From: a virus
Lineage: Duplodnaviria; Caudoviricetes
DNA: 64,000 nucleotides
Virus record (IMG/VR): IMGVR_UViG_3300031867_000032
Coordinates: 1-64,000 of that record
Reading direction: 5' to 3' (one strand)
In this document: positions 896 to 64,000 of the stretch, piece by piece
How the letters are laid out: each line of letters begins with the position of its first letter
Numbering within the stretch: position 1 is the stretch's first letter
The notes under the pieces: generated by a model
Seen by the model: the letters and a program-made list of their open reading frames with translations, nothing else
Told to the model about the DNA's origin: nothing
Database searches by the model: none
Position numbers and translations under genes: made by a program

Positions 896-1996
896 TTGTT
901 AGTGGACTTAGACTACTCTCTATCTACTCCAGAAGAGCGAGTAGATTACGTTAAAACTCTTTTAGCTGATAATCCTCCTCTTAATAATAGCACTCTAACT
1001 ATATTAGCAGACTACATTTTATTTATTCGTGATCGTAACCAAACAAAGAAACAACGTGACGCAGACCATCCAATATTAACCCCTAACAGAGAGTTTACTA
1101 TTAACAAGAGGGAGACATCATACGAAGCTTTAGTAGACAAACTTGAAAATGGCGAAGATGGTCTATACAATATTATCCGCAATGATAAAACCCAAATTCT
1201 TGATCCAAAAGACCCAATCACAGAAGAAGATGTGAAAAATATCCCTGGCATTAAAGAATGCCTTGATGTAATTGCTTCTCTAAAAAAGCAATTAGAAACT
1301 GCATCAAAATATCGTCGCAAAGCTTTAACTCAAGCAATTATCGACACTTGAAAACAAGCTTACATTATTAAAGGCAACTATTCAATGATAGGACGTTTAA
1401 AATCAACGTCTCAAATCAAAACAATAGCATCACTCTCCATCCCTGAAGAAATTTACTTCGATGATAATATGATGCCGCACTCTGATAAACCTTTCTCCTT
1501 CCTCAATCCAGAACATGTTTCTTTCTTACTTTGTCACTACCAAGGTTTAAAGCAAGAATCTTGAGAAGATCTTCACTGTGACATGCGGTGACACCTAATC
1601 GACCTTGAAGATCTTACCGAGGAAGCATTGCGGGAAAAGTACCCCATGCTCTGAGATATAGTAGTTTGAAAAGTAGACGGTCTTACTAACGACCAAATCC
1701 GTGAAAGAGTTCTCCAAGAATATGGTGAAGATCATTCAGAACAATATTATTCATCTATTTGACGCAAACGTATTCCTAAACTCATTACTGAGCAATTTCA
1801 AAAGAACTATGTAGAATGATATTTTACAGAAAAAGAACGTGGTTACTGGAAAAAATGTAGTAAATGCGGGCAAATTAAATTAGGACACCCTCTTTTCTTT
1901 GCTAGAAATACTAGTAAAGATGGCTGATATAGTCAATGTAAAGAATGTAAAAACGCTTCAAGAACTATTTCTGTCAAAAAAGTCTCAGAAAAATAG
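896..1996 (+). CDS. Putative DNA-binding regulator, 366 aa (HTH-like region plus C-terminal CxxC...CxxC Zn finger)
   Basis: GGAGG RBS and TTG start; open through 8 in-frame TGA to TAG; C-terminus WKKCSKCGQ...DGWYSQCKECK. Confidence 0.55.
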
Positions 1997-2011
1997 AAAG
2001 AAGGTGACTTT

Positions 2012-3244
2012 ATGACAGTAGATGAAGGATATAAAACATGTTCAAAATGCGGACGTTCATTGAAAGCAAGTGCGGAGTTCTTCAAAATGAAATCTGGAGA
2101 ACGTTGCGATCTATGTAAAGATTGTTTAACTCAATATATCGACAATCGCAATCCAGAAACATTTATGTGAATCCTTGAAATGTTTGATGTTCCTTACATT
2201 GAAAAAAAATGAACGCAACTTACAAATGAACGTTATAAGAAGAACCCTGGTAAGTTTGGACCAAAATCAGTAATTGGTCTTTATTTACGGGCTATGAACA
2301 TGCTTCAATATCGTGATTTAACTTATGCGGACTCTGATTCAATTAATAATGTTGGTAAAGATATTAAAGTAGATGAAGATTATGAAGAACAATTAAAAGC
2401 AAAATTAGAAAGCGGCGAAATTTCTCAAGGTCAATATAATACTCTTACAAAAACAAATCGAGATGTTCAAAAAGAAGGCTATGATGCAAAAGGATTTTTA
2501 ATTCCTGAAGAAGAGACTCAGCCCGAAGAACCGCAAGAGCAGACGCCGCAATATCAAGTAGATCCTAACTACTGAACAGACCAATTAGATGAGTCAGATA
2601 TTAATTATCTAATGCTTAAATGAGGTACTATGTATACTCCTGAAGAGTGAGTAAAAATGGAAACTACTTACAATAAATATTCTCAGGAATATGACCTTAA
2701 CGTAGACCGCGAAGAAGTTCTTAAAAAAATGTGTAAAACTTCTCTTAAAATGGATGAAGCGTTAGACGCAGGTGACGTAACTGGCTACAAGAATCTTGCG
2801 GCCGTCTTTGACCAGCTCCGCAAGTCAGGCAAATTTACTGAAGCTCAAAATAAAGAAGATAGACAACAAGTTCTTTCTTCTATTGGAGAATTAGTAGCAC
2901 TTTGCGAGCAAGAAGGCGGTATTATACACGCTCTGCCGCAATATGATCCTGATCAGTATCCGCAAGATAAAATTGATTTTACACTTAAAGATCTTAAATC
3001 TTACACTTACAGCTTAGTAAGTAATGAACTTGGTCTTGGGGATCTTATTGAATCTTATATTGAGAAACTTGAACAAGCAGAAAGTGATTCTGTTGATATT
3101 AATGCGGGACTTGTAACATCTGCGGAAGAAGAAGCAAGTGACGAACTTACAGATGAAGAAGCAGAAGAATGGCAAGGATTCCTTGAAAATGAAGTTGAAG
3201 CAGAAGCTGAAATGCTTGAACGTTTCTTAGCAGGTGATTTATAA
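2012..3244 (+). CDS. Zn-finger protein upstream of the terminase, 410 aa (candidate packaging accessory/small terminase)
   Basis: Joins track fragments 2294 and 2657 in one frame with TGA=Trp; N-terminal CSKC...CDLCKDC; TAATG coupling to the terminase. Confidence 0.5.
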
Positions 3245-4989
3245 TGGCCTTAAAAGATATTCTTCAAACGACCAATAGACGAAAAGAATTAGATAGCGAT
3301 GCAATTAAAGAAGAAGTCCATAATCATTTAGATGAATATAGAGAATTAATTGCATATTGACGAGTTTATCCTGATAAACTTGTCGATTATTACTTGTCTC
3401 TTGGAAATCCTTACAATTTTAAATTTATTTTTTATCAAAGATTATTCTTGCGAGCACTGTTTCGGCATAAATATGTCTATGCCACTTTCGTTCGAGCTTG
3501 GTCTAAATCATTTATGTCAGTTATGGCTCTAATGTTAAAAGCTATTCTTTATCCTGGAGCTAAGCTATTCACTGTAGCAGGTGGTAAGCAACAGTCTGCG
3601 GAAATCCTTTCAGGTAAAGTATTAGAAATTTGTAAATTAATTCCCGCAATGGAGAGAGAAATTATCTGAGATACGCGAGGTACTCGAGCTCGAACTGCGC
3701 AGACTAAAGATAGTGTTATTTATACATTTAAAAATGGTTCAACATTAGAAAATGTTGCGGCGTCTGAGAAAACTCGTGGACGTCGTTTTAATAGTGGTTT
3801 AATGGAGGAATGTGTAGGTATTGACCAAGATATTCTTAATGAAGTTCTTATTCCTACACTTAACGTTGACCGTATGGTTCAAGGCCAAACTGATCCAAAT
3901 GAACAATTAAATAAAAGTCAAATTTTCGTGACTACTGCAGGTTATAAAAATACGTATAGTTATGAAAAATTAATTGAAATTCTTTGTCGTTCAGTGGTGC
4001 GACCAAAAGATGCAATTGTACTTGGCGGTAGTTGGCGAGTTCCTGTCATCTTCGGGCTCTTGGATAAAAACTTTGTGCGGGACCTCAAGATGGATGGCAC
4101 ATTTAATGAAGACTCATTTGAGCGAGAATATGAATCTAAATGGACTGGCGATATTGAATCTGCATTCTTTAACTCAGAGCGTTTTGATAAGAACCGCCGT
4201 ATTAATCAACCTGAATGAAAATATTCCAATAGAACAAGTAAAGATGGATATTATATTATGGGTGTTGACGTTGGACGATTTGGTTGTACAACTGAAGTAG
4301 TCATTATTAAAGTAACTCCAGGTGCGGGCGACATTCCTCGTAAACGTATTGTTAATATTTATTCATTTGATGAAGAGCACTTTGGTTTACAATCGCTTAA
4401 ATTAAAGCGTTTATTCCAACAATATAAATGTCGCGTCGCTGTAATCGACGGCAATGGCCTAGGTGCGGGACTTGTAGACATGCTGACAATGGATACAATT
4501 GATCCTGATACTGGAGAAACGCTTTACAATTGAGGTGTTATGAATGATGAAGATAATAAGTATCGCAATATGAAAACAGAAGATACAATAACTGATGCTA
4601 TGTATATTATGAAAGCTAATCAGGTATTAAATTCTGAAATGTATGCTTATTGTCAATCAGAAATTAATGCGGGTCGTGTAATATTTTTAGTAGATGAAGC
4701 TATTGCTAAAAACAAACTAATGGCTCAAGCTCAAGGTAAAAAAATGAGCCAATCTCAACGTGCGGATTACCTTATGCCATTTGTCCAGACAAGTATTCTT
4801 AAAGATCAAATGCTAAACTTAATTACAGAAAATGATGGTGCACATATTATTTTAAAACAAGCTTCAAAGAAAATTAAAAAAGATAAATTTTCTGCTTTAA
4901 TTTATGGTTTATATTATTGCAAATTACAAGAAGATGCACGTTCTAAAAAGCGTAAACGTGATATTTCAAAATTTATGTTCTTTAATTAA
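3244..4989 (+). CDS. terL: Terminase large subunit, 581 aa
   Basis: Four track fragments in one frame joined by 4 TGA; Walker A-like FVRAWSKS, RGRR motif, Walker B GLMEE, RNase H-like MGVDVGRFG and terminal KKDKFSALIYG. Confidence 0.9.
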
Positions 4990-5072
4990 AAACTTTGGGG
5001 CAAAAAATTATAATTAAGAAAGCAATAAAAGCATATACAATGAACAAGTAAGTCTTACGAAAGAGGAATATT

Positions 5073-5429
5073 ATGATGAGTTCAAAAATGGAAGTTAAGA
5101 TACATAATATCTTAACCGATTATGATGTTCCTTTTGAAGAAGAATATGAGTTTGACGACTTAATTGCATCAAGTGGTAGACACTTACGTTTTGATTTTGC
5201 CGTATTTACAGAGGATGGTGGGTTAGACTTCCTGATCGAAGCCCAAGGGAGACAACACTATACCGCAGTTAATAAGTTTGGTGGGAGCAAAGGTGTTGGA
5301 CGGCAAAAATATAACGATATGCAAAAACGAGAATATTGTTTAAAGCATAATATCAAGTTAATCTGTATTCCTTATTATGACGAACCCAGAATAACATATG
5401 ATTATATTATGCGGGCGGCTGGATATTAA
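5073..5429 (+). CDS. PD-(D/E)xK, Vsr/DUF559-like endonuclease domain protein, 118 aa
   Basis: LRFDFAVF...LIEAQGRQHY...KREYCLKHNIKLICIPY motif. Confidence 0.7.
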   Translation: MMSSKMEVKIHNILTDYDVPFEEEYEFDDLIASSGRHLRFDFAVFTEDGGLDFLIEAQGRQHYTAVNKFGGSKGVGRQKYNDMQKREYCLKHNIKLICIPYYDEPRITYDYIMRAAGY

Positions 5430-5442
5430 GGAGGTCGAGCAC

Positions 5443-7008
5443 TTGAGTACAAATGATTTTCGTTTAGTTGCTTCAAACGAACCTGCGCGTCCTTCTAAAG
5501 ACTTTAATAAAATGAGAATTGATGGTAAACTTTATAAAGATGATGTAACAATTAATACTTCTCCTTTCAATAAACTTTACCGTCGCCGTAGAATTCATAA
5601 GCATGATATATATGGTGCTTTAGAGCGAAGAGATTTAAAAGAATTGCGGGCAATTTCAAATTATTTCTTCCTTAAAAGTGGTATCTATTCTCGACTATGC
5701 CGTTATATGGCTTATCTTTATCGCTACGACTGGATGATAACTCCTGTTCGATACGATGATAAAATTAAAGATGAAAAAGTCATTGAAGGCTGGTTAAAGT
5801 CTACTGCCTATTTAGATAATTGTCGCTTAAAGAAAAATTTTGGCGAGATTGCTTTAAAGGTAGTTAAAAATGGTTGCTTTTATGGATATAAAATTGATCA
5901 AAAAACTGCGTGTGTTATCCAGGAGCTTCCAATTGACTATTGCCGCAGTCGTTTTAAGTTTAATAACTTACCAATCGTAGAATTTAATGTTAAATTCTTT
6001 GACGATAAATTTGCGGATACTGAATATCGCATTAAAGTGCTTAAAATGTTCCCAAAGGAATTCCAACAGGCTTATATTAAATATAAGCACAATACTTTAA
6101 AGAAAGACCATAATGGTGACGAAACAGGTTGGTTTGCACTAGATGCGGGTGCCGCATTTAAATTTAATCTTAATCACAGTGACATTCCTCTATTCCTTTC
6201 AATTATACCAAAATTAATTGATCTCGAGGATGCACAAGATTTAGATCAGAAGAAGATGGAGCAACAATTAATTCGTCTAATCATTCAAGAGATGCCAATT
6301 GATAAAAATGGTGATCTTATCTTTGATGTAGATGAAGCTCGAGAATTGCATAAGAATGCAGTTGGTATGTTAGGTGGTACTGTAGGAGTAGATGTTCTTA
6401 CTACATTTGCAGATGTTCATGTAGAAGACCTTTCTGATAAAGGAAATATGTCTGCCGCAGATCAATTAGACAAAGTTGAACGTACAGTTTATAATGAAGC
6501 TGGCGTTAGTCAAATGCAATTTAATACTAGTGGCAATTTAGCCTTAGAAAAATCAATTCTCAATGATGAAGCTACAATGACAAATCTTCTTCTTCAATTT
6601 GAGGAATTTGCTGAAAGTTTATTAAAGACTTTCAACAAAAATCCGAAGCGTCTAAAATATCAAGTACAGATGCTTCCTACAACTATTTATAATTACAAAG
6701 ATCTTTCCAAGCTTTACAAAGAGCAAACACAGATAGGCTTTTCTAAGCTTCTGCCTCAGATTGCTCTTGGAGAGTCTCCTAGTACCGTGCTCGCGACTGC
6801 GGTCTTTGAGAATCAGATGATGAAGCTTGATGAGATATTTACTCCTCCGCAAATGTCTTCTACTATTAGTAAAACTCAACAGTCTGGTGGCACTAATAAA
6901 CAGAACAATGACGCTGAGCCGTCCGCGGGAGAGCAAGGTGGCCGTCCAGAGCTACCCCAGGATGAAAAATCCGATAAAACAATCGCAAATGAGGAATCAC
7001 AGGGTTAA
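5443..7008 (+). CDS. Portal protein, 521 aa
   Basis: AAGGAGG RBS with TTG start; size and position between terminase and prohead protease; no in-frame TGA. Confidence 0.75.
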   Translation: MSTNDFRLVASNEPARPSKDFNKMRIDGKLYKDDVTINTSPFNKLYRRRRIHKHDIYGALERRDLKELRAISNYFFLKSGIYSRLCRYMAYLYRYDWMITPVRYDDKIKDEKVIEGWLKSTAYLDNCRLKKNFGEIALKVVKNGCFYGYKIDQKTACVIQELPIDYCRSRFKFNNLPIVEFNVKFFDDKFADTEYRIKVLKMFPKEFQQAYIKYKHNTLKKDHNGDETGWFALDAGAAFKFNLNHSDIPLFLSIIPKLIDLEDAQDLDQKKMEQQLIRLIIQEMPIDKNGDLIFDVDEARELHKNAVGMLGGTVGVDVLTTFADVHVEDLSDKGNMSAADQLDKVERTVYNEAGVSQMQFNTSGNLALEKSILNDEATMTNLLLQFEEFAESLLKTFNKNPKRLKYQVQMLPTTIYNYKDLSKLYKEQTQIGFSKLLPQIALGESPSTVLATAVFENQMMKLDEIFTPPQMSSTISKTQQSGGTNKQNNDAEPSAGEQGGRPELPQDEKSDKTIANEESQG

Positions 7009-7022
7009 CGAGAGGAGGGAAG

Positions 7023-8417
7023 ATGGCATTAAAGAATAAATCCGAGGTAAACATGATTCAAGGCCCCGAGTTCATCAATTTACAACCTCTTGATGTTAAC
7101 CCTTTGATGCAAAAATGCGAAATTAAAGTTTTTTATCTAGGTCACAATCGTAATGGTTCTTACATTAATCGTGAAACTGCTTTAGAAATGGCTAAGACAT
7201 TGCGGGGAACCCCAATTGTTGCAGCTTTTAATAAAGATAAAGGAGACTTTGGCGATCATGGACATGTAATGCATATCGAAGATGGCGAAGTAACTTTCAC
7301 TGTTAAAACCATTCCCTATGGTTTTGTCGCTCCAGATGCAGAGGTCTGGTTTCAAAACTTCACTGATACAGATGAATTTGACAATTCCGTAGAACGTACC
7401 TATTTAATGACAACGGGTTATCTCTGGTCTGGTCAATTTGAAGAACTCACTAAAGTAATTAATGAAGGTCAGCCGCAATCAATGGAGTTAGATTCTGACT
7501 CACTTCAAGGACATTGGGCGACTGATAATAATCTTGGTGTAGATTTCTTCATTATTAATGACGCAACTTTTAGTAAGTTGTGTATTCTTGGGGACAATGT
7601 TGAACCCTGCTATGAGGGAGCCTCTGTAACGTCTCCAGAGGTCAGTAAGAATTTCAGCAAGGATTCTGAATTCCAACAGACCTTATTTAGCATGATGAAT
7701 GACTTACAAATCGCTCTTAATAGCAAAGGAGGGTTGAACATGTCTGAGAATGAACTAATTAATGATTCTGTCGAAACTGCGGAAGAGCAGCCTGTACTTG
7801 AGAACGAGCTCGAACAAGATGAGGTTGTGGAATCCCCTTCAGTGGAGAATGAAGAATTTTCCAATGAGGAAGTAGAGGTCCAGGAAGCAGTTGAGACTGA
7901 TGATAATTCTGCAGCTGACGAATTTGTTGATAAAAAGAAAGATGAAGAAGATGCGGGATCCGAAGACAAGGACGAGGATGACGCAGATGATTCTAACGAC
8001 GATGCTGATGATGATTCCGATGATGATGATCAGAAAAAGCCTAAGAATCAACATTCATTAGAAGAGTTTGAAGCTTTACAGGCAGAAATTGATTCTCTTC
8101 GCGCAGAGAATGAAGAACTCCGCAACTTTAAACTCGCAGTTGAAAATCGACAGAAAGACGCTTTAATTGCTTCTTATCATATGCTATCCGATGAGGATAA
8201 AGCAGAAGTAATTGCTCACAAGTCTGAGTTTAGCCTTGATGAGATTAAAGCGAAGTTAGCTGTTATCTATGTTGAGAAGAATGTTAATTTCGACATGATT
8301 GATGGTCAAGAAGAGGTCGAGGATGATCCCGCACCTACAATGACTTTCTCTCTCGACGAAGAAGCATCTGAGGGCGTTCCTGCTTTCATCGAAGCGCTTC
8401 GTCACACAAGTAAATAA
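7023..8417 (+). CDS. Prohead protease/scaffold fusion, 464 aa
   Basis: N-terminal protease-like domain (GHNRNGSYI, QSMEL, LCILGDNVEPCYEGA) followed by an acidic coiled-coil scaffold; position before the capsid genes. Confidence 0.7.
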   Translation: MALKNKSEVNMIQGPEFINLQPLDVNPLMQKCEIKVFYLGHNRNGSYINRETALEMAKTLRGTPIVAAFNKDKGDFGDHGHVMHIEDGEVTFTVKTIPYGFVAPDAEVWFQNFTDTDEFDNSVERTYLMTTGYLWSGQFEELTKVINEGQPQSMELDSDSLQGHWATDNNLGVDFFIINDATFSKLCILGDNVEPCYEGASVTSPEVSKNFSKDSEFQQTLFSMMNDLQIALNSKGGLNMSENELINDSVETAEEQPVLENELEQDEVVESPSVENEEFSNEEVEVQEAVETDDNSAADEFVDKKKDEEDAGSEDKDEDDADDSNDDADDDSDDDDQKKPKNQHSLEEFEALQAEIDSLRAENEELRNFKLAVENRQKDALIASYHMLSDEDKAEVIAHKSEFSLDEIKAKLAVIYVEKNVNFDMIDGQEEVEDDPAPTMTFSLDEEASEGVPAFIEALRHTSK

Positions 8418-8434
8418 TTAAAGGAGGTTGTAAT

Positions 8435-8926
8435 ATGGCTATTACAATTAAGCGTGATGGTTATGGCCAAGTAGAGCCAAATCATCTCTCTGCTCCTCGT
8501 GATGGTCGCGTCTATGCGCAGCTTCCCGCCAATGAGGACATTAAAATCCTTGAGAATGGTATGTTTGTAAAATATGACTACGCTGCTGGTGAAGTTAATT
8601 TTACAGGCGATGGCGCTTGGATGCTCGTTTATAACGAGGAAAAGCTCTATGATGAGCGTTATCAGATGCACAAGCATTGGGCACAGAAAGTAGAGGATGC
8701 CTATGACGGCAAGATTTATCCTCGCGTTTTTGGTGTCGTTGCTGGTGATATCTTTACTACTAATATGTTCGCTGACGATACTGAGCTTTCTGTTGGTGAT
8801 ACCGTTACTCCTGGTACTGATGGTATCCTTGCAGCTGGTGAGGGCGACGTTACCTTCAAGGTTGTAAAAGAGTACACTCTTCCTGATGGTCAGCCTGCCG
8901 TTAAGCTACAGTGCATCAAGGCTTAA
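8435..8926 (+). CDS. Head decoration/capsid-associated protein, 163 aa
   Basis: Strong RBS, high-expression codon usage, lies between scaffold and major capsid gene. Confidence 0.6.
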   Translation: MAITIKRDGYGQVEPNHLSAPRDGRVYAQLPANEDIKILENGMFVKYDYAAGEVNFTGDGAWMLVYNEEKLYDERYQMHKHWAQKVEDAYDGKIYPRVFGVVAGDIFTTNMFADDTELSVGDTVTPGTDGILAAGEGDVTFKVVKEYTLPDGQPAVKLQCIKA

Positions 8927-8945
8927 TTGGAAAGGAGTGTAGAAT

Positions 8946-10043
8946 ATGGATTACAAAGATCTTAAAGAGCTAGCTCGCATTGCTATGCATGCGGATCCCA
9001 GCGCTCCTACTGCTTACTCCTTCGGTAATGAGTCTTATACCCTTGATCAGGTAAATCAGGCTCTACAGGTTGAGTTCCAGAAGTTAGCTGGTTCTTATAG
9101 AGATTATCGTGAGAACAAGAACACCATCTTCCGTCTAATTGAGGAAACAATTGATGAAGTTCTTCCTGCTCGCGTTGAACAGCAGTATGCTCAGTTCGCT
9201 GAGGTTCGTACTGTTGCTAATGGCGAGAAGGCTATTTTCCGTATGCGTGTTACTGAGGCTGCACGTAAGCGTGCTAAGACCTTCGTTACTCGCGTTGGTT
9301 TAGCTGGTCGTTATGAAGTCTTCATGCTTGATGGTAAGCAGCTTGAAATCGGTACCGCTGCTATCGGTGGAGCCGCTCGCATCGGCTTTGAGGAAGTTCT
9401 CGACGGCCGCATCCAGTTCTCTGAGCTTACCAGTCTTGTCATGGAGGGCATGGACGAATATATTTATCGTGAGATTGCTAAGGCTCTCGAAGCTGTAGTT
9501 AAGGACCTACCTGCTGTACAGAAGGCTGAGGTTGCTGGGTTCGATGAGGCTACAATGGACGAGTTACTCGCTATTGCTGATACTTATGGTCGTGCTGCTA
9601 TTTACTGCACCTTTGAATTTGCTTCTAAGATGCTTCCTGCTGAGGGATGGGTTTCTGATGATATGAAGAACCGTCTCTGGGCTGACGGTTGGCTAGGCAA
9701 TTATAAGGGCCATAATGTTATTATTCTTCCTCAGTCTGTCGTTGACGAGACTAATATGGAGAAGGTAATTGATCCTGCTCAGGCTTACATCTTCCCTGCT
9801 GGTCAGGACTCTAAGCCCGTTAAGATTGTCTTTGAGGGCCCAACTGCTGTCCGTACCGTTGAGGATAATGACGACTGGAGCACCGACTTCCAGACCTACA
9901 AGAAGTTTGGCGTTGCTACTTTCTTCACTAATTATATCTTCAGCTACCGTAATACTGAGTTAGTTAAGGCTACACGTCTCCACAACTTCGATGATGGTTC
10001 TGAATCTAGCACAGATGATGGTGGCAACAACGTCAAGCCTTAG
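8946..10043 (+). CDS. Major capsid protein, 365 aa
   Basis: Position, size, strongly biased codon usage (GCT/CGT/AAG/GAG), followed by a terminator. Confidence 0.8.
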   Translation: MDYKDLKELARIAMHADPSAPTAYSFGNESYTLDQVNQALQVEFQKLAGSYRDYRENKNTIFRLIEETIDEVLPARVEQQYAQFAEVRTVANGEKAIFRMRVTEAARKRAKTFVTRVGLAGRYEVFMLDGKQLEIGTAAIGGAARIGFEEVLDGRIQFSELTSLVMEGMDEYIYREIAKALEAVVKDLPAVQKAEVAGFDEATMDELLAIADTYGRAAIYCTFEFASKMLPAEGWVSDDMKNRLWADGWLGNYKGHNVIILPQSVVDETNMEKVIDPAQAYIFPAGQDSKPVKIVFEGPTAVRTVEDNDDWSTDFQTYKKFGVATFFTNYIFSYRNTELVKATRLHNFDDGSESSTDDGGNNVKP

Positions 10044-14284: not shown

Positions 14285-15625
14285 ATGCGCATGGGTGTAC
14301 GCGAGATCTGCGACGTTGTCTTTCGTCCTTTAACTGCTGTAGATATCGGAAATCAGCACTTTGATGCTGGTCAGCCTGTTCTTTATCTTGATACAGCTAA
14401 GACCAGTACTCTTGAGGGTGCTGCTACTACAGTTTATGCACAGGGCGGAAAAGGTAATCCTCGTCTAATTGGTTGGGACGGCGAGAAGACCTTAACATTC
14501 ACCGTCGAAGATGCTCTAATTTCTGCGGTTAGCTTCTCTATGTTATCTGGTGCTGGTATCGTCAAGGGCCGCAAGGCTGAGGGTGATACTCCTGCTACTA
14601 AGATTTATGCTCATCAAACTTATGATCTAGTTGTTGAAACTAAAAATGGTGGTCTTTATGCACAACTTCCTACAGATGTACGTAATGGCGCTACTCTAGT
14701 TGTTTCTCGTGAAGCTCCTGTTTATGCCACTGTTTTAGATAGTGCTGGTGCTCCTCGTACTTTCCTTTCTGCTGTTACTATGAAGGAGATTTTTACTGGC
14801 AATGATGCTTCAACTGTAGCAGAATATGACCCTGCTGCTCCTGGTGAAGTCAAGCTTGAAGCTGAAGATGTAGTTTGGTTTAAACTTAGCTCTAGTGAGC
14901 GTCCATATACTGAGGGCACTGTGCCTCCTGGGGTAAAAGCTGGTAATACTGTCCGTATTGACTGCTATACAGTTCATACCGAAGGTGCTCAAGAAATTCA
15001 GATTGACGCTGAAAACTTCGCTGGTTATTATTATATTGAAGCTGATACCCTCTTCCGTGACGAGGCTACTGGTCAAGACTTACCCGCTCAGTTTATTATT
15101 CCTCGTGGTAAGATTCAGTCTAACTTCACTTTTACAATGGCTAACTCCGGCGATCCTTCAACCTTTACCTTTACAATTGACGCTTTCCCAGCTTATACTA
15201 AGTTTAATAAGCGTAAGAAAGTAATGGCTGCTCTCCAGATTATTGATCCTACTGTTGCAGGACATAATTATGAGGATAAGAGCATTATTGGCCATAAAGA
15301 GCGTAATGCTGGCGTAGATATTTACGGTGAAGGTAATGAATATACCGAAGGCGGTAGCGATCAAGCTAAGCGTAATCGTATTTATGATACTAGCATTTTT
15401 GAGGAAGTTGGAACTTCTAATAACCAGCAGCAAGATGGTGGCACTGGTGACGGTGGTACTGGTGAAGGTGGATCTGGCACTACAACTGACACTTACGTTG
15501 ACGCACCTGCCGAGTTTAATGCAGATACAATTTATTACGTCAAGGATGGCGATAATTACGTCGCAGCAGATCCTCAGCCTACCGCTGATAACTTTAGTGA
15601 AGGAACTTATTTCATTAAAGGTTAA
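14285..15625 (+). CDS. Major tail (tube) protein with Gly-rich linker and small C-terminal extension, 446 aa
   Basis: AAAGGAGG RBS; GGKGNPRLIGWD and SGDPSTFTFTIDAFP motifs; high-expression codons; no TGA. Confidence 0.75.
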   Translation: MRMGVREICDVVFRPLTAVDIGNQHFDAGQPVLYLDTAKTSTLEGAATTVYAQGGKGNPRLIGWDGEKTLTFTVEDALISAVSFSMLSGAGIVKGRKAEGDTPATKIYAHQTYDLVVETKNGGLYAQLPTDVRNGATLVVSREAPVYATVLDSAGAPRTFLSAVTMKEIFTGNDASTVAEYDPAAPGEVKLEAEDVVWFKLSSSERPYTEGTVPPGVKAGNTVRIDCYTVHTEGAQEIQIDAENFAGYYYIEADTLFRDEATGQDLPAQFIIPRGKIQSNFTFTMANSGDPSTFTFTIDAFPAYTKFNKRKKVMAALQIIDPTVAGHNYEDKSIIGHKERNAGVDIYGEGNEYTEGGSDQAKRNRIYDTSIFEEVGTSNNQQQDGGTGDGGTGEGGSGTTTDTYVDAPAEFNADTIYYVKDGDNYVAADPQPTADNFSEGTYFIKG

Positions 15626-26900: not shown

Positions 26901-27287
26901 TATTTCAATCATGGTTATGGATATAATTTTGATTTTGATACCGGTGGTTATACTGGCGAATGGAATCAAGGAGAAGGTGTAAGTAGTCATAAGAATGGTA
27001 AATTAGCTTTCTTACATCAAAAAGAACTTATTTTAAATGCACAAGACACAGAGAATATATTATCTGCTGTTTCTATGGTAAGAAGTCTTGCAAATTCAGC
27101 TCAAGCTTCTATGAACAATATTAATACTGCGGCCTCTGGCAATATTAATAGCATATATAATCCTGTTACAGAACAAAGAGTTGATATTCAAGCTTCATTC
27201 CCCAATGCGACAGATGCAGAAGATATACGTCAAGCTCTTATTGGTTTATCTGATAGAGCTTATCAGTATGCTCATCGTGTAATTTAG
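17931..27287 (+). CDS. Tape measure protein, 3118 aa, with two tandem Hint domains
   Basis: Eleven track fragments share one frame when TGA=Trp; N-terminal tape-measure-type helical region, long coiled coil, C-terminal FDTGGYTGEW...LAFLHQKELILN motif. Confidence 0.9.
23022..23441 (+). other. Hint (bacterial intein-like/PT-HINT type) domain 1 in the tape measure protein, 140 aa
   Basis: Starts CFVAGT, block B VTSIH, ends VYNFEVAGNHNYYVGRNQILAHN followed by Lys. Confidence 0.9.
23460..23876 (+). other. Hint domain 2 (tandem duplicate), 139 aa
   Basis: Starts CFVAGT, block B VTGIH, identical C-terminal VYNFEVAGNHNYYVGRNQILAHN followed by Lys; separated from Hint 1 by KGGGKS. Confidence 0.9.
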
Positions 27288-51038: not shown

Positions 51039-52613
51039 ATGGCTAATAATTTAGTTAAGTTTGTTTACGTTCCTGGTACCGTTACTGCGGAACAAATTGC
51101 AGCTTTTGATGCCAACACAGTCTATTTTATTGCTGGTTCTCACCAAATTTATAAGGGCTCTGTCCTTTATGATGGTGGTTCTTCAACTGCTGCTGCAGAT
51201 CTAGCTCTACTTCGTGAGCAGATTGGCTCCTTACCTGTAAGCCAAGAGTACACCGATCTTATTGACTATATCGATAAGCAGATTGCGGCTGGCGATACTG
51301 CTAATTCCGCAGAAGTAACTGCTCTTGATAATAGTCTTGCGGCCGTTGCTAAGAGTGGTGCAGCTGAGGATGTTTCCGTAGAAGATGCTAACGGTCACTT
51401 TACCGCAACCGATGTTGAAGGTGCCCTAGAAGAGCTTTATACTGCTATTGGTACTGGTGGAACAAATGCTGCTGTTACTGTTACTAAGACTATTGGTGGA
51501 GCAAACGATAGCTTCATTTCTAAGTATACCTTTAGTCAAGGTGGAACTCCTATCGCTAATGGTGAAATTGAGATTGGTAAAGACTTAGTTGCTACCAATG
51601 GCGAATTAGTTGAGGAAGATGGCAATGGTAATTCTGGTACATTTATTAAGATGACCATTGCAAATGGTACTCCATTCTATATTAACGTTGCTGATCTAAT
51701 TGAGTATAACTCTGTTGAGTCTACTAATGAAATTACACTAACAGACACCAATCATAAAATTACTGCTACCGTTGGTGAGATCGCAGCTTCTAAGATTATT
51801 TATCAGGCCGCAGAAGGTGCAACTCCTGCTAAGACAGTTGCTCAGGCTATCAATGCTTTAGAGTCTGCTGTTGGTAGTGGTGGTAGCGTTGATCAGAAGA
51901 TCGCAGATGCTATTGCTGGACTTGATTCTAGTGCAACTGCTACAGCTGGTTCTGCTCTAACTAGCGTTACTGTTACTGACGGTAAGATTACTGGTTCTAC
52001 TGAAGTTGCTCTTACCGCGGACAATATTACTTATGGTTCTGGTACCGCTAAGGCTGCTCTTGATACCATTGGTACAATTCCTGCTACTTCTGCCGCAACT
52101 ACTGTTGTTGGTTACATCGACGAGAAAGTTGGTGCTGGTGTAAGTGCTCTTGATGCAGATGTTGATGCTGCTCTTGGTGCTGGCGATACCGATGCAGAAG
52201 CTATTGCTGTTGTAACTGGTGTTACTGAGGTTGACGGTGTCATCACCGGTGTTGACAGTGCTGCCGCAGACGCCGCTGGTGCTGCTACTCGTGCCAAGGC
52301 CGCCGTTATTGGTCAAGCTGGCGATCTTGCTACTGCTGATACCATTCATGGTGCTAAGCAGTATGCAGATGATGCTGTTGCCGCAGCCCTGTCTGATGTT
52401 AATGATGACATTGCCGCTCTTGATGCTGACCTTGACGCATCTGGTACTGCACAGCATGCCGGCGTATTTGTCATGTCTGGTGTAACTCAGGTTGATGGTA
52501 AGATTACTGCAGTTGATAGCGTTGAAGTTGATCCTGCTGGTGCTGCCGCAACCGCAGAGCAAAATGCTAAAGATTACACCGATGCTGCTCTTACTTGGGG
52601 AAGCCTTGCTTAA
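51039..52613 (+). CDS. Abundant Ala/Gly/Thr-rich fibre or shaft protein, 524 aa
   Basis: Intact ORF, no TGA, capsid-like codon bias; internal repeats (V/M)(T/S)GVT(E/Q)VDG(V/K)IT; ends LTWGSLA. Confidence 0.6.
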   Translation: MANNLVKFVYVPGTVTAEQIAAFDANTVYFIAGSHQIYKGSVLYDGGSSTAAADLALLREQIGSLPVSQEYTDLIDYIDKQIAAGDTANSAEVTALDNSLAAVAKSGAAEDVSVEDANGHFTATDVEGALEELYTAIGTGGTNAAVTVTKTIGGANDSFISKYTFSQGGTPIANGEIEIGKDLVATNGELVEEDGNGNSGTFIKMTIANGTPFYINVADLIEYNSVESTNEITLTDTNHKITATVGEIAASKIIYQAAEGATPAKTVAQAINALESAVGSGGSVDQKIADAIAGLDSSATATAGSALTSVTVTDGKITGSTEVALTADNITYGSGTAKAALDTIGTIPATSAATTVVGYIDEKVGAGVSALDADVDAALGAGDTDAEAIAVVTGVTEVDGVITGVDSAAADAAGAATRAKAAVIGQAGDLATADTIHGAKQYADDAVAAALSDVNDDIAALDADLDASGTAQHAGVFVMSGVTQVDGKITAVDSVEVDPAGAAATAEQNAKDYTDAALTWGSLA

Positions 52614-56387: not shown

Positions 56388-56388
56388 T

Positions 56389-58076: not shown

Positions 58077-58090
58077 GAAAGGAGTAAAGC

Positions 58091-58930
58091 ATGGATGAAG
58101 AAATTCTAACCCCTTCTGAAGAAGAAATCACTCCTTCTGAGGAAGAAACCGTTCCTTCTAATGAAGAAACTGTTCCTACCGAAGAAGAAACTCCTGTTGA
58201 TGAAACTCCAACAGAAGAAGAAAATGTCCCTGCGGAAGGTGAGTCAGAGGAAGACTATGTTGAACCTCCTTATTACGCAGGATACCGAATTTTTGCTGAA
58301 AATGGTCGCGAAATTACAGATCCAGATTTAACTTTAGGTTATCTTGTAAAAGATCATTTAACTATTAACCATCCCGCAATTCCAGCAAAATATCATTATA
58401 AAGTTCGACATGTAACTTTAACCGATGGAACAGATTTTTATCCAGAGGATAATGATCCCCGCATCAACATGCCAGATAATCAGGTTCCTAGTTGGAGTTA
58501 TGTTGCTCCCGAACCGGAATCTATTATCGAACAATACGTTGATGAAGATGGTCAAATTCAAGATCGAGTAATAACTATACCTGCTCCAACAGTAAAGAAT
58601 GCTTCTGTTGCTTATATCATTGACGCTCCTGCTGTTGAAGCTTATGATGAAATTGAAACAATTTATCATTATATTCTTTATACAGAAAAAGAATTAGCTA
58701 ATAATGCTTTCTTAGCAGAAGGCCCTGTTCGCTTAGATGGCGCAGAAGAGTCTATTAATGATATTACTGAAGTTGTAGCTGACCTTGCAGGTAGCGATAT
58801 TGAAGATCGCGTTGATAATGCAGAAGAACGTCTTACTACAAATAAAGAAGCTTTAGATGAACTTCTATTAGTAGTAGCTGATATTCTTGGTGGCGCGACC
58901 GAAGAAGAAGAAGAAGAAGAACCAGTTTAA
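58091..58930 (+). CDS. Acidic tail-fibre-assembly-like (XkdW-like) protein, 279 aa
   Basis: N-terminal EE(I/T)(T/V)P(S/T) repeats; C-terminal ESINDITEVVADL helix; followed by a small XkdX-like gene. Confidence 0.45.
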   Translation: MDEEILTPSEEEITPSEEETVPSNEETVPTEEETPVDETPTEEENVPAEGESEEDYVEPPYYAGYRIFAENGREITDPDLTLGYLVKDHLTINHPAIPAKYHYKVRHVTLTDGTDFYPEDNDPRINMPDNQVPSWSYVAPEPESIIEQYVDEDGQIQDRVITIPAPTVKNASVAYIIDAPAVEAYDEIETIYHYILYTEKELANNAFLAEGPVRLDGAEESINDITEVVADLAGSDIEDRVDNAEERLTTNKEALDELLLVVADILGGATEEEEEEEPV

Positions 58931-58950
58931 AGGAAAGGTAGGTAATTATT

Positions 58951-59118: not shown

Positions 59119-59120
59119 TT

Positions 59121-59477
59121 ATGGATTTATCCGCAGTAACTAGCTATATCTCTCCTATCATTTTAATAGCATGCTTAGGAGTTGGATATACACTTCATAC
59201 TTTAAATAATAAAATATTAAATAGTTTTATTCCTGTTATTTCTGCTTCTCTTGGAATAACTGCCGCTGTTTGAAGTCTTGGAATGTTTGACCTTCCCACT
59301 ATCGTAACTGGTATGATTAGTGGACTTGCGGCGACTGGTATGTATGAAGCCTTTAAAAATATTTTAGGTTTACCGCAAACATATGCGGCTGCTATGGCAT
59401 TACCAGAAATTCCTTACGGAGAAGTCTTAGAAGATACTGATGATTCTCCTCGTGGAGAACACTTCGCAAAGGAGTAA
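59121..59477 (+). CDS. Holin, 118 aa
   Basis: Three hydrophobic segments, GMISGLAATGMYEAFK holin motif, directly upstream of the endolysin; one TGA. Confidence 0.8.
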
Positions 59478-59479
59478 AT

Positions 59480-61009
59480 GTGAAAGAACCCGTCATTGAT
59501 GTTTCACATTGAGACGGTACAGTAGATTACGCCTCATGGATTGCTAAACACAATCTATGGGGCGTTATTGTCAAATGTGGCGGCAATGAAACAAAATTAG
59601 GTCGCTATACTGACTCTCAATATGAAAATAATTACAAACGTGCAAAGGCCGCAGGTCTTCATGTTGGTGCGTATTATTATACTGTTTGCACTTCTGTAGC
59701 AGAAGCTAAGAAGGACGCAGAGCATGTTATTGGACTATTACAAGGTCATGATTTTGATATGCCAATTTATATGGATGTAGAAGATCCTCGTCAGTTTAAA
59801 CTTTCAAAACGTGAATTAACTGACGTAATTAAAACTTTTTGTGATGCTTTAATTGATGCTGGATATTATGCAGGTCTTTATACTGGTGGGTATGCTTGAT
59901 TAAATAATATGTATAAAGATGAATTAGATGATTATGCTAATTGAATTGCTTGATGGCGAGCATCTTGGCCTACAGAAGCTGGCCCTATCGGTTTATGGCA
60001 ACAAGGTACAAGACGTTTAAGTACTGGTGAAATTTATTATGATGATGTATCTGGTGCTACCGATTTTAGTTGATGCGTAATTGATTATCCTGCCCGCATT
60101 AAAGCTAATCAAAAGAAAGAAACTAACGAAAATAGTGATTCTAAGGAGTCAACAGTGGCAGATAACAGACTTACAAAATTCTGTAATATAATGTATACTG
60201 CATGTGCTGAATGATCTCTTGGTTATGATCAATACAATCGTTGAGATATTCGCGATGGTGGTGAATGCGACTGTAGCTCATTAGTTATTTGAGCAGCACA
60301 ACAAGCTGGATTTGATACAGGTTCCGCATCATATACTGGAAATATGTCTAGTAATTTTACAGCTCGTGGATGACAACGCATTCCCGCAGATTTATCTCAA
60401 GCTAGACCTGGCGATATTTTATTAAATGATACTTACCATACTGCCGCAGTAATTTCTGGTTATGGTTGGGATGCTAAAATTGCACAAGCGTCTATTGATG
60501 AACGTGGTCGTGCAACTGGCGGCTCTGAAGGGGATCAAACTGGAAATGAAACTAATGTAAAAGGTATTTATACCTACGGTCGTGGTTGAGATTGTATTCT
60601 TCGTTTTACTGGAGAATCAACTTCCGGTGCAGATACAGACAATTATATCATTAAATTAGATGTTGACGGGGCGGGCGGCCCTGCGACAGTTAGAGCTTGA
60701 CAAATTTCTCTAGGCACAGAAACTGATGGAGTTATTTCCGGTCAAGTTTATGATAGTAGAGATTATTTCTGAGCAATGAACGCAGTAACTTTTGAGCATA
60801 GTGGCTCTGCTTTAGTACGTGCTGTTCAACGTAAAGTTGGTGCAGACGTTGATGGTTACTGAGGTCCTGCGACTTCAAGAGCAATTCAAAACTTCTTAAT
60901 TGAACATGGTTTTGATGTAGGCGACGCAGGAGCAGACGGTTACTTTGGAACTGATTCTGTAAAAGCTTTGCAACGTTCTCTTAATAGCTCTAATAATCCT
61001 TGAAAATAA
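59480..61009 (+). CDS. Endolysin, 509 aa: GH25 muramidase, CHAP/NlpC-P60-like domain and peptidoglycan-binding repeats
   Basis: GGAG RBS and GTG start; IDVSHWDG, VGAYYY, MDVED; CDCSSLV...PGDILLNDTYHTA; VDGxxGPAT repeats; about 14 in-frame TGA, so absent from the track. Confidence 0.9.
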
Positions 61010-61010
61010 A

Positions 61011-61050
61011 ATAAAGGGGTATACTCTTGTGAGTATACCCCTCTTTTTTT
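61011..61050. terminator. Bidirectional intrinsic terminator between convergent modules
   Basis: AGGGGTATACTC-TTGT-GAGTATACCCCT flanked by an A-rich run upstream and a T-tract downstream. Confidence 0.85.
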
Positions 61051-61701
61051 TTATCAATATTTTCCATAAATAAAAGCGTAACTGCCGCATTTTTCTCATG
61101 CTTTTTTAAATGTTTCTTTTGTAATACCTACTCTACTATTGGAGTTAATTAAATAAAAATATTCTAAATCTGATTTATAAATAACATAACACTCTCCATC
61201 ATATCAATGTTCACCAATCCAAACAATAATAGGATAATTATTTTCAGAACATTGACATAGATAAGTAAAACCTTTGTTACTAATATCTTGAGCAGATATA
61301 GGCCATTGTTCACCTGCTATATAAGCCATTGAAAAATTATAAAGCCACTCAGGTCTAATTTTACCTTCTTTTGGAACATCAGGATCATCTTCTTGTTCTA
61401 ACATATCTCAATAAAATTGATCAATATCTACATCATATCCTAACATTTTCATTGCCATAAAGAAACAACTTGTACTATCTGTATCAGTAAAATGGCCTTG
61501 AATATCTCGTTCTAAATTTTGCGGTTGAAGCTCAGGCTGTTTTACTGTGCTTCAATCTACAGGCATTTCATAAACAATAGGTTCTTCTACATTTTCAATA
61601 GTAGGTTCTGTAGGTCTAAAAAGGTATCATCTAGCAAAAAGAATATAAATTATAGCGACAATAATAATACTTAAACTAAAACGCAGATTTCAATTTTTCA
61701 T
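61051..61701 (-). CDS. Membrane-anchored protein with a possible degenerate C39-like peptidase fold, 216 aa
   Basis: N-terminal TM helix; TSCFFMAMKMLGYDVDI and YPIIVWI motifs; open with TGA=Trp. Confidence 0.4.
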
Positions 61702-62170
61702 CTTCTAAAATCCCTGCATATCCTAGACATATTGCATCCGCTTCATCCTCAGATGCAAATGATTTAAAATTATCTTCTACAAATTGTTTTGATTTTGCTT
61801 TTTGTTCAGCTCTAGTCCTACCAAATTTGATTCCATGTTTATTTTTAATTATACTACGTCAATGTGACGGAGTTAATTCTAAATTTTCAATTTGTTTTTG
61901 ACGAGATCAATAAATAACCATTGCTTGAATCATTGCTAATTTTTTATATGTTTCTGCATTGTTTTGATATTGAATCCCTTCAAAATAAATTTTCTCAGGA
62001 TGATAGGTTTCAATTAAAACATTAAATTCTCTGACAAAAGAATCTAATCTTTCCCCCATTGATTTATTGGCGGAGATTGAAAAATGACCAAACCCAATTA
62101 ATTTTTTGTTATCAAAAACTGCTCAACCAGTTGTACGGCTAGCTTGGTCAAGTGCTAACGTCCGCCGCAC
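61676..62170 (-). CDS. RuvC-like Holliday junction resolvase, 164 aa
   Basis: LALDQASRTTGWAVFD, IYFEGIQ and DEADAICLG catalytic motifs; three TGA; GTG start. Confidence 0.8.
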
Positions 62171-62172
62171 AA

Positions 62173-62649
62173 CTATGCACCTGTACTACCTAGGCCGCCA
62201 CGAGCCTCATTTCCAAGAGAAGGAACAGAAATAAAATTAATCTTAGGTTGTTCCTCTTGGATGCGGAATTGACAAAGTCGAGTTCCTTTAGGAATTGTAA
62301 CATCACGTGTTGCTAATACAGGCATCATCCATTGATCATCATCACCATTGTATGTAGAGTCAATAACTCCAATACTATTGGTTTGAAGAATACCCCAACG
62401 TTTAAAAGTAGAACTGCGGGGAGCTAAAATAGCTTCATAACCAAGTGGCAATTCCATTGCAAATCCTAGAGGAACGTAATCTCGCGTTCCAGCTTTTAAG
62501 CACATTTCTTCTGCTGTATAGCAATCAATCCAACTACCCCAGCCTTCTTGAGAAAGTTCTGGAGTAGTACCATAATATTTAACTTTAATTGGAACACTTC
62601 CAACATTATGTAGCATATTTAAAAAATTATCAGCTTCTTCTTTACTCAT
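62173..62649 (-). CDS. dut: Trimeric dUTPase, 158 aa
   Basis: Motifs LAPRSS, GVIDSTYNG, RLCQFRI, ARGGLGSTG; ATG coupled to the upstream stop. Confidence 0.9.
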   Translation of the reverse strand: MSKEEADNFLNMLHNVGSVPIKVKYYGTTPELSQEGWGSWIDCYTAEEMCLKAGTRDYVPLGFAMELPLGYEAILAPRSSTFKRWGILQTNSIGVIDSTYNGDDDQWMMPVLATRDVTIPKGTRLCQFRIQEEQPKINFISVPSLGNEARGGLGSTGA

Positions 62650-62948
62650 TAATCTTCCTCCCAAGGTGATAGCATATCTACAGAAACAACTTTCTGCATA
62701 TTAAATTCAATGTTATCAAGAGGAATATCAGGAGCTTTAGCATCATTAAATACTAGTACTACTTTGCAAATAAACCAAGATTCAACAATTTCTCCTTGAC
62801 TTTTTCTCGTTCTTAGAGTCTGAGTCCAAGAATTTAAAATATAATCATTGTCATGAGCAAATTTTTCGTAAAAACGATGTAGTTCATTAGCATCATTTTC
62901 ATCTTCTACTCTAATTTCATTTGTTGATTTAATAAGATATTTAATCAT
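62649..62948 (-). CDS. Hypothetical protein, 99 aa
   Basis: Intact ORF overlapping both neighbours. Confidence 0.65.
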   Translation of the reverse strand: MIKYLIKSTNEIRVEDENDANELHRFYEKFAHDNDYILNSWTQTLRTRKSQGEIVESWFICKVVLVFNDAKAPDIPLDNIEFNMQKVVSVDMLSPWEED

Positions 62949-63669
62949 TAATAATCCCTTCTATAAGATTTTGTATATAAGAAATATTTATTTTTTCTTT
63001 TTCAGTATAAGGTATCCTTATTAAAAGAATATTATTATTTTGACAATAATTATTTTTAACCTTATCTCAATATTGATTATTCTTTAAAGACTGTGGATCA
63101 TTCTGTCAACCAAAGAAATGCTGCTCTCCATCGTATTCAATAATTAAATTATATTGAGGTAAATAAAAATCAAATCTTAAAGGAACGTTATTATCAGAAA
63201 CTAATCCTGGAAAAGTTTTTTCTTTAATAAAAGGAATTTTTAATTCTTCTAAAGATTGTTTTATTTTAAATTCACCCAACGATTGTAAACATCCACAAGA
63301 TTTTTTATTACCAAATAACAATTGATAAGCTGAAACTTGTATGATAGATCCGCAATCACATTCACATTCTCATATTCCACCTATGCCTTGTCCTCCAGAT
63401 GAAATAAATTTTTTTACAGTTAATTTTCCAAAACGTTGTCCTGATAAATTATGACGATGTTCACCTAATTTATTTTTATGAAAAATACAATTATTTTCCC
63501 CACAAGTAGTTACTTTTCCAGAGGTTAAATCACCACCTCTTTTTAACACTTTATTTCCACAATCACATTGTAATTCTCATACAATTTTATTATTTCATCG
63601 TTCATCTGTTTTTCTTAAACAAAGTAAATGACCGAACCTTTGTCCAGTTAAATCTTTAAATCGGCCCAT
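62941..63669 (-). CDS. Putative homing-type endonuclease, 242 aa: two DL(T/S)GQRFG...W...CDCG repeats plus a Vsr/DUF559-like nuclease domain
   Basis: Single frame with TGA=Trp; LRFDFYLPQYNLIIEYDGEQHF and LLIRIPY motifs. Confidence 0.75.
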
Positions 63670-63671
63670 TT

Positions 63672-63923
63672 TTACTCGCTGTTCATTTTTGCTTTTACAA
63701 ACTCAAGTTGATTAGCCTGAGTTACAAAATGCTTAATATAATCCGCAGGTCCTCGATAATCAACTTCTACTTTTTCCTGCACACTATTAGAATAATTTTT
63801 TATAAATTCAATAGACTCTTGCGGAATACTAAGTTGAGAAATTTTATGCATATCTCCATTATCAAGTACCTCAAAAATTTGAGTAAAATCAACTGGATTA
63901 GTTAGAACAATTAATTTATGCAT
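63672..63923 (-). CDS. Hypothetical protein, 83 aa
   Basis: Intact ORF, start overlaps the upstream stop. Confidence 0.6.
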   Translation of the reverse strand: MHKLIVLTNPVDFTQIFEVLDNGDMHKISQLSIPQESIEFIKNYSNSVQEKVEVDYRGPADYIKHFVTQANQLEFVKAKMNSE

Positions 63924-64000
63924 TGCTAATCACCTTCTTTATATTTTCTACGTTTAAAACGGTATGATCTCAAAACGGAATTTGATAAAGTTTTAATCCA
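63916..64000 (-). CDS. C-terminal end of a gene truncated by the window edge (GLKLYQIPFWD..., Vsr/DUF559-like tail)
   Basis: Reads GLKLYQIPFWDHTVLNVENIKKVISNA* with TGA=Trp; resembles the C-termini of the 5073 and 62941 nucleases. Confidence 0.4.

Follow-up and report, generated by a model that had tools for sequence, protein, structure and literature searches.

What the codon TGA means to a virus, and how it comes to be read, is the question raised by a 64,000-nt stretch of viral DNA (IMGVR_UViG_3300031867_000032, positions 1 to 64,000; hereafter, the window), the opening part of an 81,495-bp viral contig from IMG/VR with a CheckV completeness of 57%. The window is AT-rich (GC content of 0.34) and corresponds to the late-gene arm in the genome of a large siphovirus; its source is a large gut or rumen phage, the full genome of which probably amounts to approximately 135-140 kb. 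A preliminary description, prepared from the sequence alone, proposed that TGA is recoded from stop to tryptophan (Trp) throughout this genome, that the host has a cell wall and still uses TGA as stop, and that the decoding machinery is located outside the window. In our analysis, the assignment of TGA to Trp is strongly supported, whereas the use of this codon turned out to be stratified rather than genome-wide. The best explanation, to which we assign a probability of approximately 0.8, would be a phage suppressor tRNA-Trp(UCA) acting on a standard-code host, with TGA gating the late genes.

Reading frames and the amino acid at TGA

The summed length of stop-to-stop open reading frames (ORFs) of at least 100 aa in the window increases from 15,701 aa under translation table 11 to 27,458 aa when TGA is read as sense, and the fragments reported in the preliminary description do fuse into full-length genes. 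The longest of these ORFs contain 3130, 2164, and 2156 aa, as compared with a maximum of 596 aa under table 11, and called genes of 3118, 2162, and 2155 aa appear only once TGA is a sense codon; the longest ORF grows from 581-596 to 3118-3130 aa. The coverage of the window by greedily selected non-overlapping ORFs is 67.5% under table 11 and 96.9% under table 4; tables 4 and 25 give the same ORF structure. Table 15, in which TAG is sense, was rejected, as it restores neither gene lengths nor coverage (75.7%). All 54 genes of the window terminate with TAA (41 genes) or TAG (13 genes), in accordance with the earlier claim, and the same holds for all 71 genes of the contig (53 and 18 genes, respectively), including the 30 genes that have no in-frame TGA. 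The window contains approximately 212 in-frame TGA codons. Under the standard code the phage breaks into approximately 114 short ORFs, in which the genes for the tape measure, fibres, terminase, and lysin cannot be recognised; all of these genes are recovered by reading TGA as Trp.

The window contains its own control for the identity of the encoded amino acid. Two tandem Hint domains of the tape measure protein share 77% amino acid identity, and the same position of the motif LQIGDW is written as GAT-TGG in the first copy (23301-23306, plus strand) and as GAT-TGA in the second copy (23736-23741, plus strand), with both codons in the frame of the tape measure gene, exactly as the preliminary description had it. 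Its two other examples also hold, since TGA occupies the conserved Trp positions of IDVSHW in the GH25 endolysin (codon 11) and of TGWAVFD in the RuvC-like resolvase (codon 16).

Among 46 related IMG/VR loci, the codons aligned with the TGA sites of the window are most often TGG (325) or TGA (232), followed by TTT (36) and TAT (34). TGG and TGA together account for 69% of the aligned codons and glycine (Gly) codons for about 2%, GGA (12/813) being the sole Gly codon within the fifteen commonest. The TGG sites of the window demonstrate the same spectrum in these loci (TGG, 516; TGA, 135; TAT, 66; TTT, 40). A similar picture was obtained for a single gene, the sigma-factor-like gene, where the TGA sites correspond in relatives to TGG (94) and TGA (66), and then to TAT or TTT. 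The close relative G002 (125 kb, 83% complete) has a large terminase subunit (TerL), DNA polymerase, and sigma-factor-like protein that are 98, 97, and 97% identical, respectively, to those of the contig; comparison of the window with its orthologues revealed 28 swaps between TGA and TGG (e.g., RuvC codon 104, which is TGA in the window and TGG in G002), as opposed to approximately four swaps between TGA and other codons.

The endolysin was compared with 120 homologues, with X placed at its TGA sites; Trp was the commonest residue at 12 of the 14 sites in close homologues and at 9 of the 14 sites in distant ones. In an alignment of 26 endolysin sequences, W155 shows no variation at all, and almost none is seen at W140, W198, and W461. 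Bacterial GH25 genes, including those from metagenome-assembled genomes (MAGs), that have no in-frame TGA carry TGG in 73 and aromatic codons in 75 of 307 aligned positions, with at most two occurrences of any single Gly codon. The conserved body of the terminase gene has four TGA sites; three of them align with Phe, Tyr, or Trp in five cultured standard-code phages, and the remaining one, codon 167, falls mostly opposite gaps. Weak support comes from a PDB sequence search with the GH25 domain, where one TGA site aligns with a Trp of 2ww5; a similar search with RuvC gave no match. Gly-dominated columns were not seen at the TGA sites among the 46 loci, the 120 endolysin homologues, the GH25 genes, and the terminases.

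Because five independent tests agree (endolysin homologues, the 46 loci, G002, bacterial GH25 genes, and terminases of cultured phages), the reading of TGA as Trp, interchangeable with TGG, is strongly supported by these comparisons. The amino acid composition shows the same: the frequency of Trp in the late genes is 1.35% with TGA counted and 0.36% without it, and the replication genes of the contig reach 1.29% from TGG alone. Selenocysteine, pseudogenisation, and assembly error were rejected given the number of in-frame TGA codons, the retention of TGA or TGG across relatives, and the Trp or aromatic character of the aligned columns.

Uneven use of TGA along the contig

In-frame TGA was found in 58% of the genes of the contig, and its distribution does not bear out genome-wide recoding. 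Seventeen of the 54 window genes lack TGA; these include the genes of the head block, the genes at 14285-15625, 51039-52613, and 58091-58930, and the dUTPase gene (Table 1). The genes named here, except that of dUTPase, make up the TGA-free late set. The replication arm, located mostly just outside the window, also contains almost no TGA in the rest of the contig (64.8-81.5 kb).

In the TGA-containing late genes, TGA occurs 190 times and TGG 52 times (TGA share of 0.79), the other synonymous pairs ending in A or G are 0.83-0.92 A-ending, and the GC content of third codon positions (GC3) is 0.16. TGA in these genes is therefore an ordinary synonymous codon under AT pressure, used at the frequency that the AT bias predicts. 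The replication arm has a GC3 of 0.19 and other A/G pairs that are 0.72-0.93 A-ending, whereas its TGA share is 0.03 (2 TGA and 66 TGG; Fisher p = 5e-24 against the late genes). Since the AT bias in the replication arm is similar to that in the recoded late genes, the avoidance of TGA there must be selected and not compositional. The TGA-free late genes (0 TGA and 16 TGG) have a GC3 of 0.30; AAA, GAA, and CAA make up only 0.46-0.59 of their pairs, with TTA at 0.89 and AGA at 1.00. For AAA/AAG in particular, the A-ending share is 0.46, as compared with 0.83 in the TGA-containing late genes. Thus, three codon tiers are observed: replication genes free of TGA, the highest-copy virion genes both free of TGA and rich in GC3, and the other late genes rich in TGA. 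Such codon statistics are unusually clean evidence for selected avoidance of TGA, which is the key premise of the idea that a genetic code can serve as a lysis timer.

The head block contains 12 TGG and no TGA (Fisher p = 6e-8 in the comparison with the remaining late genes). Its GC content is approximately 0.40, as opposed to 0.33, and its portal protein is 78% identical to that of G002, while the flanking TerL is 98% identical; this divergence suggests recombination. The four Trp sites of the capsid gene carry no TGA in any relative, whereas the portal gene does carry TGA in relatives.

Candidate decoder, relatives, and explanation

No tRNA was detected in the window by either ARAGORN or Rfam, which agrees with the preliminary description; at the Rfam gathering thresholds no RNA family was found in the window at all, and thus no tRNA, ribozyme, or SECIS-like element. 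The expectation that the decoding machinery lies elsewhere in the genome received support by way of a close relative. A single tRNA gene, tRNA-Ser(AGA), which has an unusual anticodon, was found in the other 17.5 kb of the contig. In G002, 12 tRNA genes, including one for tRNA(UCA), are located at 76-80.5 kb in an extended early region of small genes that mostly lack TGA, within a segment absent from the contig: with tRNA-Ser and the portal gene as anchors, simple arithmetic places this array approximately 24 kb past the contig end. The relative G003 likewise carries tRNA(UCA) in a tRNA array. The same tRNA-Ser(AGA) gene is present in G002, where it adjoins tRNA-Ser(GCU). An 80-nt stretch of the G002 array (79234-79313; L204 19234-19313) scores as tmRNA in Rfam (64 bits); as the model has 374 positions, it may be a tRNA-like fragment.

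The search for a tryptophanyl-tRNA synthetase (TrpRS, PF00579) or a release factor (PF00472), which had been considered as further parts of the machinery, gave nothing in the contig (G000), G002, G003, the complete 135.8-kb genome G005, and G006. As no TrpRS was found in the contig or these four relatives, the suppressor is presumably charged by the host TrpRS.

The tRNA(UCA) genes of G002 and G003 are 94-97 nt long, and their variable arm forms a predicted hairpin with a loop resembling the anticodon loop of normal tRNA-Trp. The loop of the first arm, CUUCAAA, reads UGA, and that of the second arm has the form N-U-CCA-A-A. A pattern scan for a UCA anticodon loop combined with a T loop yielded at least 23 tRNA(UCA) genes, of which 18 (16 distinct sequences) are 93-100 nt long. 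UCCAA is found in the second arm of all 16 distinct long sequences, 6 of which were not chosen for that motif, and folding of the variable region by itself puts it in a hairpin loop in 15 of the 16. Covariation is seen in the stem of the second arm, and its loop does not vary. The two-arm form was found in G002, in G003, and in 14 other distinct IMG/VR sequences, and is absent from the window; the loci that carry it are L075-L086 (with L084 from G002 and L076 from G003), L092, L100, L110, L121, L158, and L161. Several copies adjoin normal tRNA-Trp(CCA) genes of 74-76 nt. No description of such a tRNA was found in an incomplete search of the literature. Our tentative proposal, for which the odds are somewhat below even, is that the decoder of this lineage is an unpublished suppressor with two anticodon arms, the second of which would serve as a handle for charging by the host TrpRS, an enzyme that needs C34. 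Such a role for the second arm is plausible because no phage TrpRS is present.

According to the portal and terminase sequences, the nearest named phages are phAss-1 (portal identity of 39.7%), Enterococcus phages EF1 and VRE9, Geobacillus phage E3, Brevibacillus phage Sundance, and Lactococcus 949-like and SPbeta-like phages. All of them are large siphoviruses that infect Bacillota or are predicted to do so, and the cultured ones infect standard-code Bacillota. Among 46 portal relatives, TGA is frequent in the closest ones (identity of 74% or more) and in another group at approximately 59-64%, and many of those with 60-66% identity contain in-frame TGA rarely or not at all, indicating the standard code. 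A group at 48.7% contains 18-40 in-frame TAG codons, and two relatives at 48% have neither TGA nor TAG. Judged from these codons, a single family-level group, which also includes phAss-1, holds standard, TGA-recoded, and TAG-recoded members. Mixed codes were likewise reported for four of eight recoded phage clades (Borges et al., bioRxiv 10.1101/2021.08.26.457843), and the occurrence of three codes side by side among the portal relatives supports fast change of phage genetic codes.

A walled host, as proposed in the preliminary description, follows from the predicted GH25 and peptidoglycan-binding domains of the endolysin. For its further claim that this host still uses TGA as stop, the support is indirect and consists of the avoidance of TGA in the replication arm, the Bacillota-infecting relatives, and the mixed-code clade; on these grounds we infer a standard-code member of the Bacillota. 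A scan of genome contigs with the endolysin alone found nothing. A profile-based scan of genome contigs returned mostly distant GH25 genes of Clostridia together with two recoded phage contigs in MAGs, and no firm host. These two contigs, L213 (CAMPBT010000008.1, 55 kb) and L214 (CAMNND010000001.1, 105 kb), were the closest matches in the genome collection and come from MAGs labelled 'Bacillales' and 'Clostridium'; their endolysins are 67-69% identical to that of the window and contain 14-19 in-frame TGA codons. Most likely, both are contigs of TGA-recoded phages mis-binned into bacterial MAGs.

Under the explanation favoured here, the early and replication genes would be written in such a way that an unmodified host ribosome can read them. 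An opal suppressor tRNA-Trp(UCA), encoded in an early region absent from the contig, would be charged by the host TrpRS, and its accumulation would permit translation of the sigma-like factor, terminase, tail proteins, holin, endolysin, RuvC, and homing endonuclease. Recoding would then act as a translational gate on the late genes and lysis. Suppression would be in competition with release factor 2 (RF2) of the host and incomplete, which is probably why the capsid and tail-tube proteins, made in very large amounts, have no TGA in their genes. Several points weigh against this scheme. The 81.5-kb contig, which is 57% complete, contains no tRNA(UCA), and a suppressor in this very phage is deduced from its relatives. 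The presumed standard code of the host is deduced from the cultured relatives, the endolysin, and the codon pattern, and the presumed timing of expression only from gene functions and, again, the codon pattern. TGA is present in the genes of RuvC and the homing endonuclease and, at single sites, in those of guanylate kinase (Gmk) and RecJ on the replication side, so the TGA boundary is not a clean line between early and late genes. Finally, the scheme offers no account of how the RF2 of the host is out-competed.

If the host itself used code 4, with TGA encoding Trp, the phage would simply match it, and neither a switch of code nor gating would be involved. This would fit the complete absence of TGA as a stop, its contribution of 73-79% to the Trp codons of most late genes, and the lack of a suppressor tRNA in the contig. 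We nevertheless consider it highly improbable. Code-4 bacteria of the Mycoplasma type have no peptidoglycan, which is the target of the endolysin. Avoidance of TGA in a replication arm with an equal AT bias would be unexpected in such a host, close relatives encode their own tRNA(UCA), and the clade includes standard-code and TAG-recoded members. Besides, the 58% of genes with in-frame TGA differ from the approximately 90% observed for host-matched phages and agree with the range of 26-71% given for recoded phages on standard-code hosts (Borges et al., bioRxiv 10.1101/2021.08.26.457843). The latter difference also separates the present phage from phages using code 25, in which TGA encodes Gly, as in those of Absconditabacteria and Gracilibacteria. 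The Gly reading yields ORFs identical to those of table 4, but it has next to no probability given the small share of Gly codons at the TGA sites as compared with TGG and TGA, and then Phe or Tyr codons, the near absence of Gly codons in the standard-code GH25 genes, and the presence of TGA at invariant Trp columns such as W155.

An alternative that retains the phage suppressor deprives it of any regulatory role and explains the TGA-free modules by recent mosaic acquisition from standard-code phages or by codon bias related to expression level. The diverged, GC-richer head block, suggestive of recombination, and the distinct GC3 of the TGA-free virion genes speak for this alternative. The replication arm, however, is as AT-rich as the recoded genes, that is, compositionally at home and yet avoiding TGA; the same avoidance is seen in G002, which shares the TGA stratification of the contig, and other, independent clades of recoded phages show this pattern as well (Borges et al.). 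We therefore regard an ungated suppressor as unlikely, and a suppressor with TGA gating the late genes as the preferred reading.

Known recoded phages and features of the late-gene arm

The restriction of TGA recoding to structural and lysis genes, with the replication machinery in the standard code, has already been published (Borges et al., bioRxiv 10.1101/2021.08.26.457843; later Nat Microbiol 2022). The present phage is a further clear example, and its value lies in annotation and corroboration. It is similar to the Agate clade of Firmicutes gut phages from that study (~127 kb) in its large genome, TGA at Trp positions, recoded structural and lysis genes, standard-code replication genes, and phage-encoded tRNA(UCA), known on the present side from relatives; the homing endonuclease is strongly TGA-biased here, and the Agate phages have an intron endonuclease among their genes with the strongest TGA bias (bioRxiv 10.1101/2021.08.26.457843). 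The resemblance to Agate rests solely on size, code, host phylum, and homing-endonuclease bias. The share of genes with TGA falls within the range described for recoded phages on standard-code hosts. In contrast to the phages of Borges et al., where such a tier was not emphasised, the highest-copy virion genes (the capsid block and tail protein) are free of TGA here.

The phage phAss-1 of the proposed genus Phassvirus (OQ749652; Babkin et al., 2023, PMC10607447) has the same kind of genome (~136 kb) and resembles the present phage in its tape measure protein (~3150 aa), tRNA array, Clostridia or Bacillota as predicted hosts, recoded virion genes, and lack of a phage aminoacyl-tRNA synthetase, but there TAG is reassigned to Gln with tRNA(CUA), and here TGA to Trp. 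Members of Phassvirus share 80-86% nucleotide identity (PMC10607447); the similarity of the present phage to them is at the protein level only (below 60%, with the portal at the value given above), which places it outside that genus, and no in-frame TAG is needed for its genes. As only TAG recoding or the standard code was reported within the phAss-1 group (PMC10607447), the window represents a new TGA-recoded lineage among the phAss-1/EF1-like siphoviruses of Bacillota. The standard-code Bacillota siphoviruses (EF1/VRE9, E3, Sundance, 949-like phages, and SPbeta-like phages with the YonF terminase) share with it the terminase-portal order and the genome size class, with identities of 23-43% for the terminase and 26-32% for the portal; they differ in having Phe, Tyr, or Trp at the TGA sites of the window.

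The reading of UGA as Trp by tRNA(UCA) is also shared with the TrpRS:tRNA-Trp(UCA) pairs of the Jade phages (Borges et al.) and with the AP1 and HF2 pairs (Seki et al., 2025, PMC12636597), and insertion of Trp was demonstrated experimentally for 13 phage tRNAs(UCA) (PMC12636597). In contrast to those systems, neither a TrpRS nor an RF1 gene was found in the contig or the four relatives, one of them complete; since a TrpRS gene was found in none of the five, charging would have to rely on the enzyme of the host.

Protein families were assigned with Pfam (35 proteins) and PHROGs, of which the latter was more informative: Pfam gave nearly no matches for the 35 proteins beyond the tape measure, lysin, holin, RuvC, and dUTPase, and phrog_32343, matching the 822-aa protein, is the sole family found for the giant tail and fibre genes. 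On the plus strand, the genes are arranged in the order sigma-factor-like gene, phrog_3314 gene, large terminase, portal, scaffold-like gene, and putative capsid genes, followed by head-tail genes, the tape measure, several giant tail or fibre genes, holin, and endolysin. From 61 kb on, the genes lie on the minus strand and encode RuvC, dUTPase, and a homing endonuclease within the window; beyond it, the replication arm encodes NrdG/NrdD, guanylate kinase, a 1274-aa DNA polymerase, RecJ, primase, DnaB, and Sak4. The coordinates are given in Table 1.

Table 1. Features of the late-gene arm and tRNA genes of the contig and its relatives (contig, the 81,495-bp IMG/VR contig)
Feature	Position	Strand	Family or basis	TGA and TGG codons; remarks
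Sigma-factor-like gene, 366 aa, C-terminal zinc-ribbon/HNH-like tail	896..1996	+	phrog_5767, E 1.8e-38	8 TGA, 1 TGG
Large terminase subunit	3169..4989	+	phrog_2 and other families	4 body TGA (codons 64, 167, 350, 455)
Head block: small ORF, portal, phrog_3313 protein, 163-aa protein, putative major capsid protein	5073..10043	+	PHROGs, codon counts	TGA-free
Virion structural protein, possibly major tail protein	14285..15625	+	phrog_2729	0 TGA, 2 TGG
Tape measure protein, 3118 aa, two tandem Hint domains	17931..27287	+	PF10145, PF07591	27 TGA, 7 TGG
Giant tail/baseplate/fibre genes, 2162, 2155, 822, 372, and 928 aa	27334..47183	+		19, 30, 11, 4, and 13 TGA, respectively
Late gene, 524 aa, among TGA-rich fibre-like genes	51039..52613	+	no family match (Pfam, PHROGs)	0 TGA, 1 TGG
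Holin	59121..59477	+	PF16079	1 TGA
Endolysin, GH25, ELLD, and peptidoglycan-binding domains	59480..61009	+		14 TGA, 6 TGG; first TGA at codon 11
RuvC-like resolvase	61676..62170	-	PF02075	3 TGA, 0 TGG; TGA at codon 16
dUTPase	62173..62664	-	PF00692	0 TGA, 4 TGG
HNH-type homing endonuclease	62941..63669	-	phrog_559, phrog_9084, phrog_7140	5 TGA, 0 TGG
tRNA-Ser(AGA), 91 nt, only tRNA of the contig	contig 78915-79005 (L002 14915-15005)	-		outside the window; unusual anticodon
tRNA(UCA) of G002	76722-76818 (L084 1069-1165)	+		relative only
tRNA(UCA) of G003	L076 1557-1650	-		relative only

Of the ten TGA codons in the terminase ORF, six fall within an N-terminal extension of 25 codons (3169-3243) that overlaps the upstream gene and has no counterpart in the terminases of cultured phages. 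These 25 codons are probably non-coding, with the true start downstream, and N-terminal ORF extensions of this kind can inflate the TGA counts of individual genes.

The sigma-like gene (phrog_5767) is located directly upstream of the packaging genes and is heavily recoded. If its product drives late transcription, its own translation would need the suppressor, which would make the gate a two-step one.

The Hint/PT-HINT pair of the tape measure protein occupies positions 23022-23876 of the plus strand. Its domains start with Cys and end with His-Asn, followed by Lys and not by Cys, Ser, or Thr, and are thus probably self-cleaving modules rather than true inteins.

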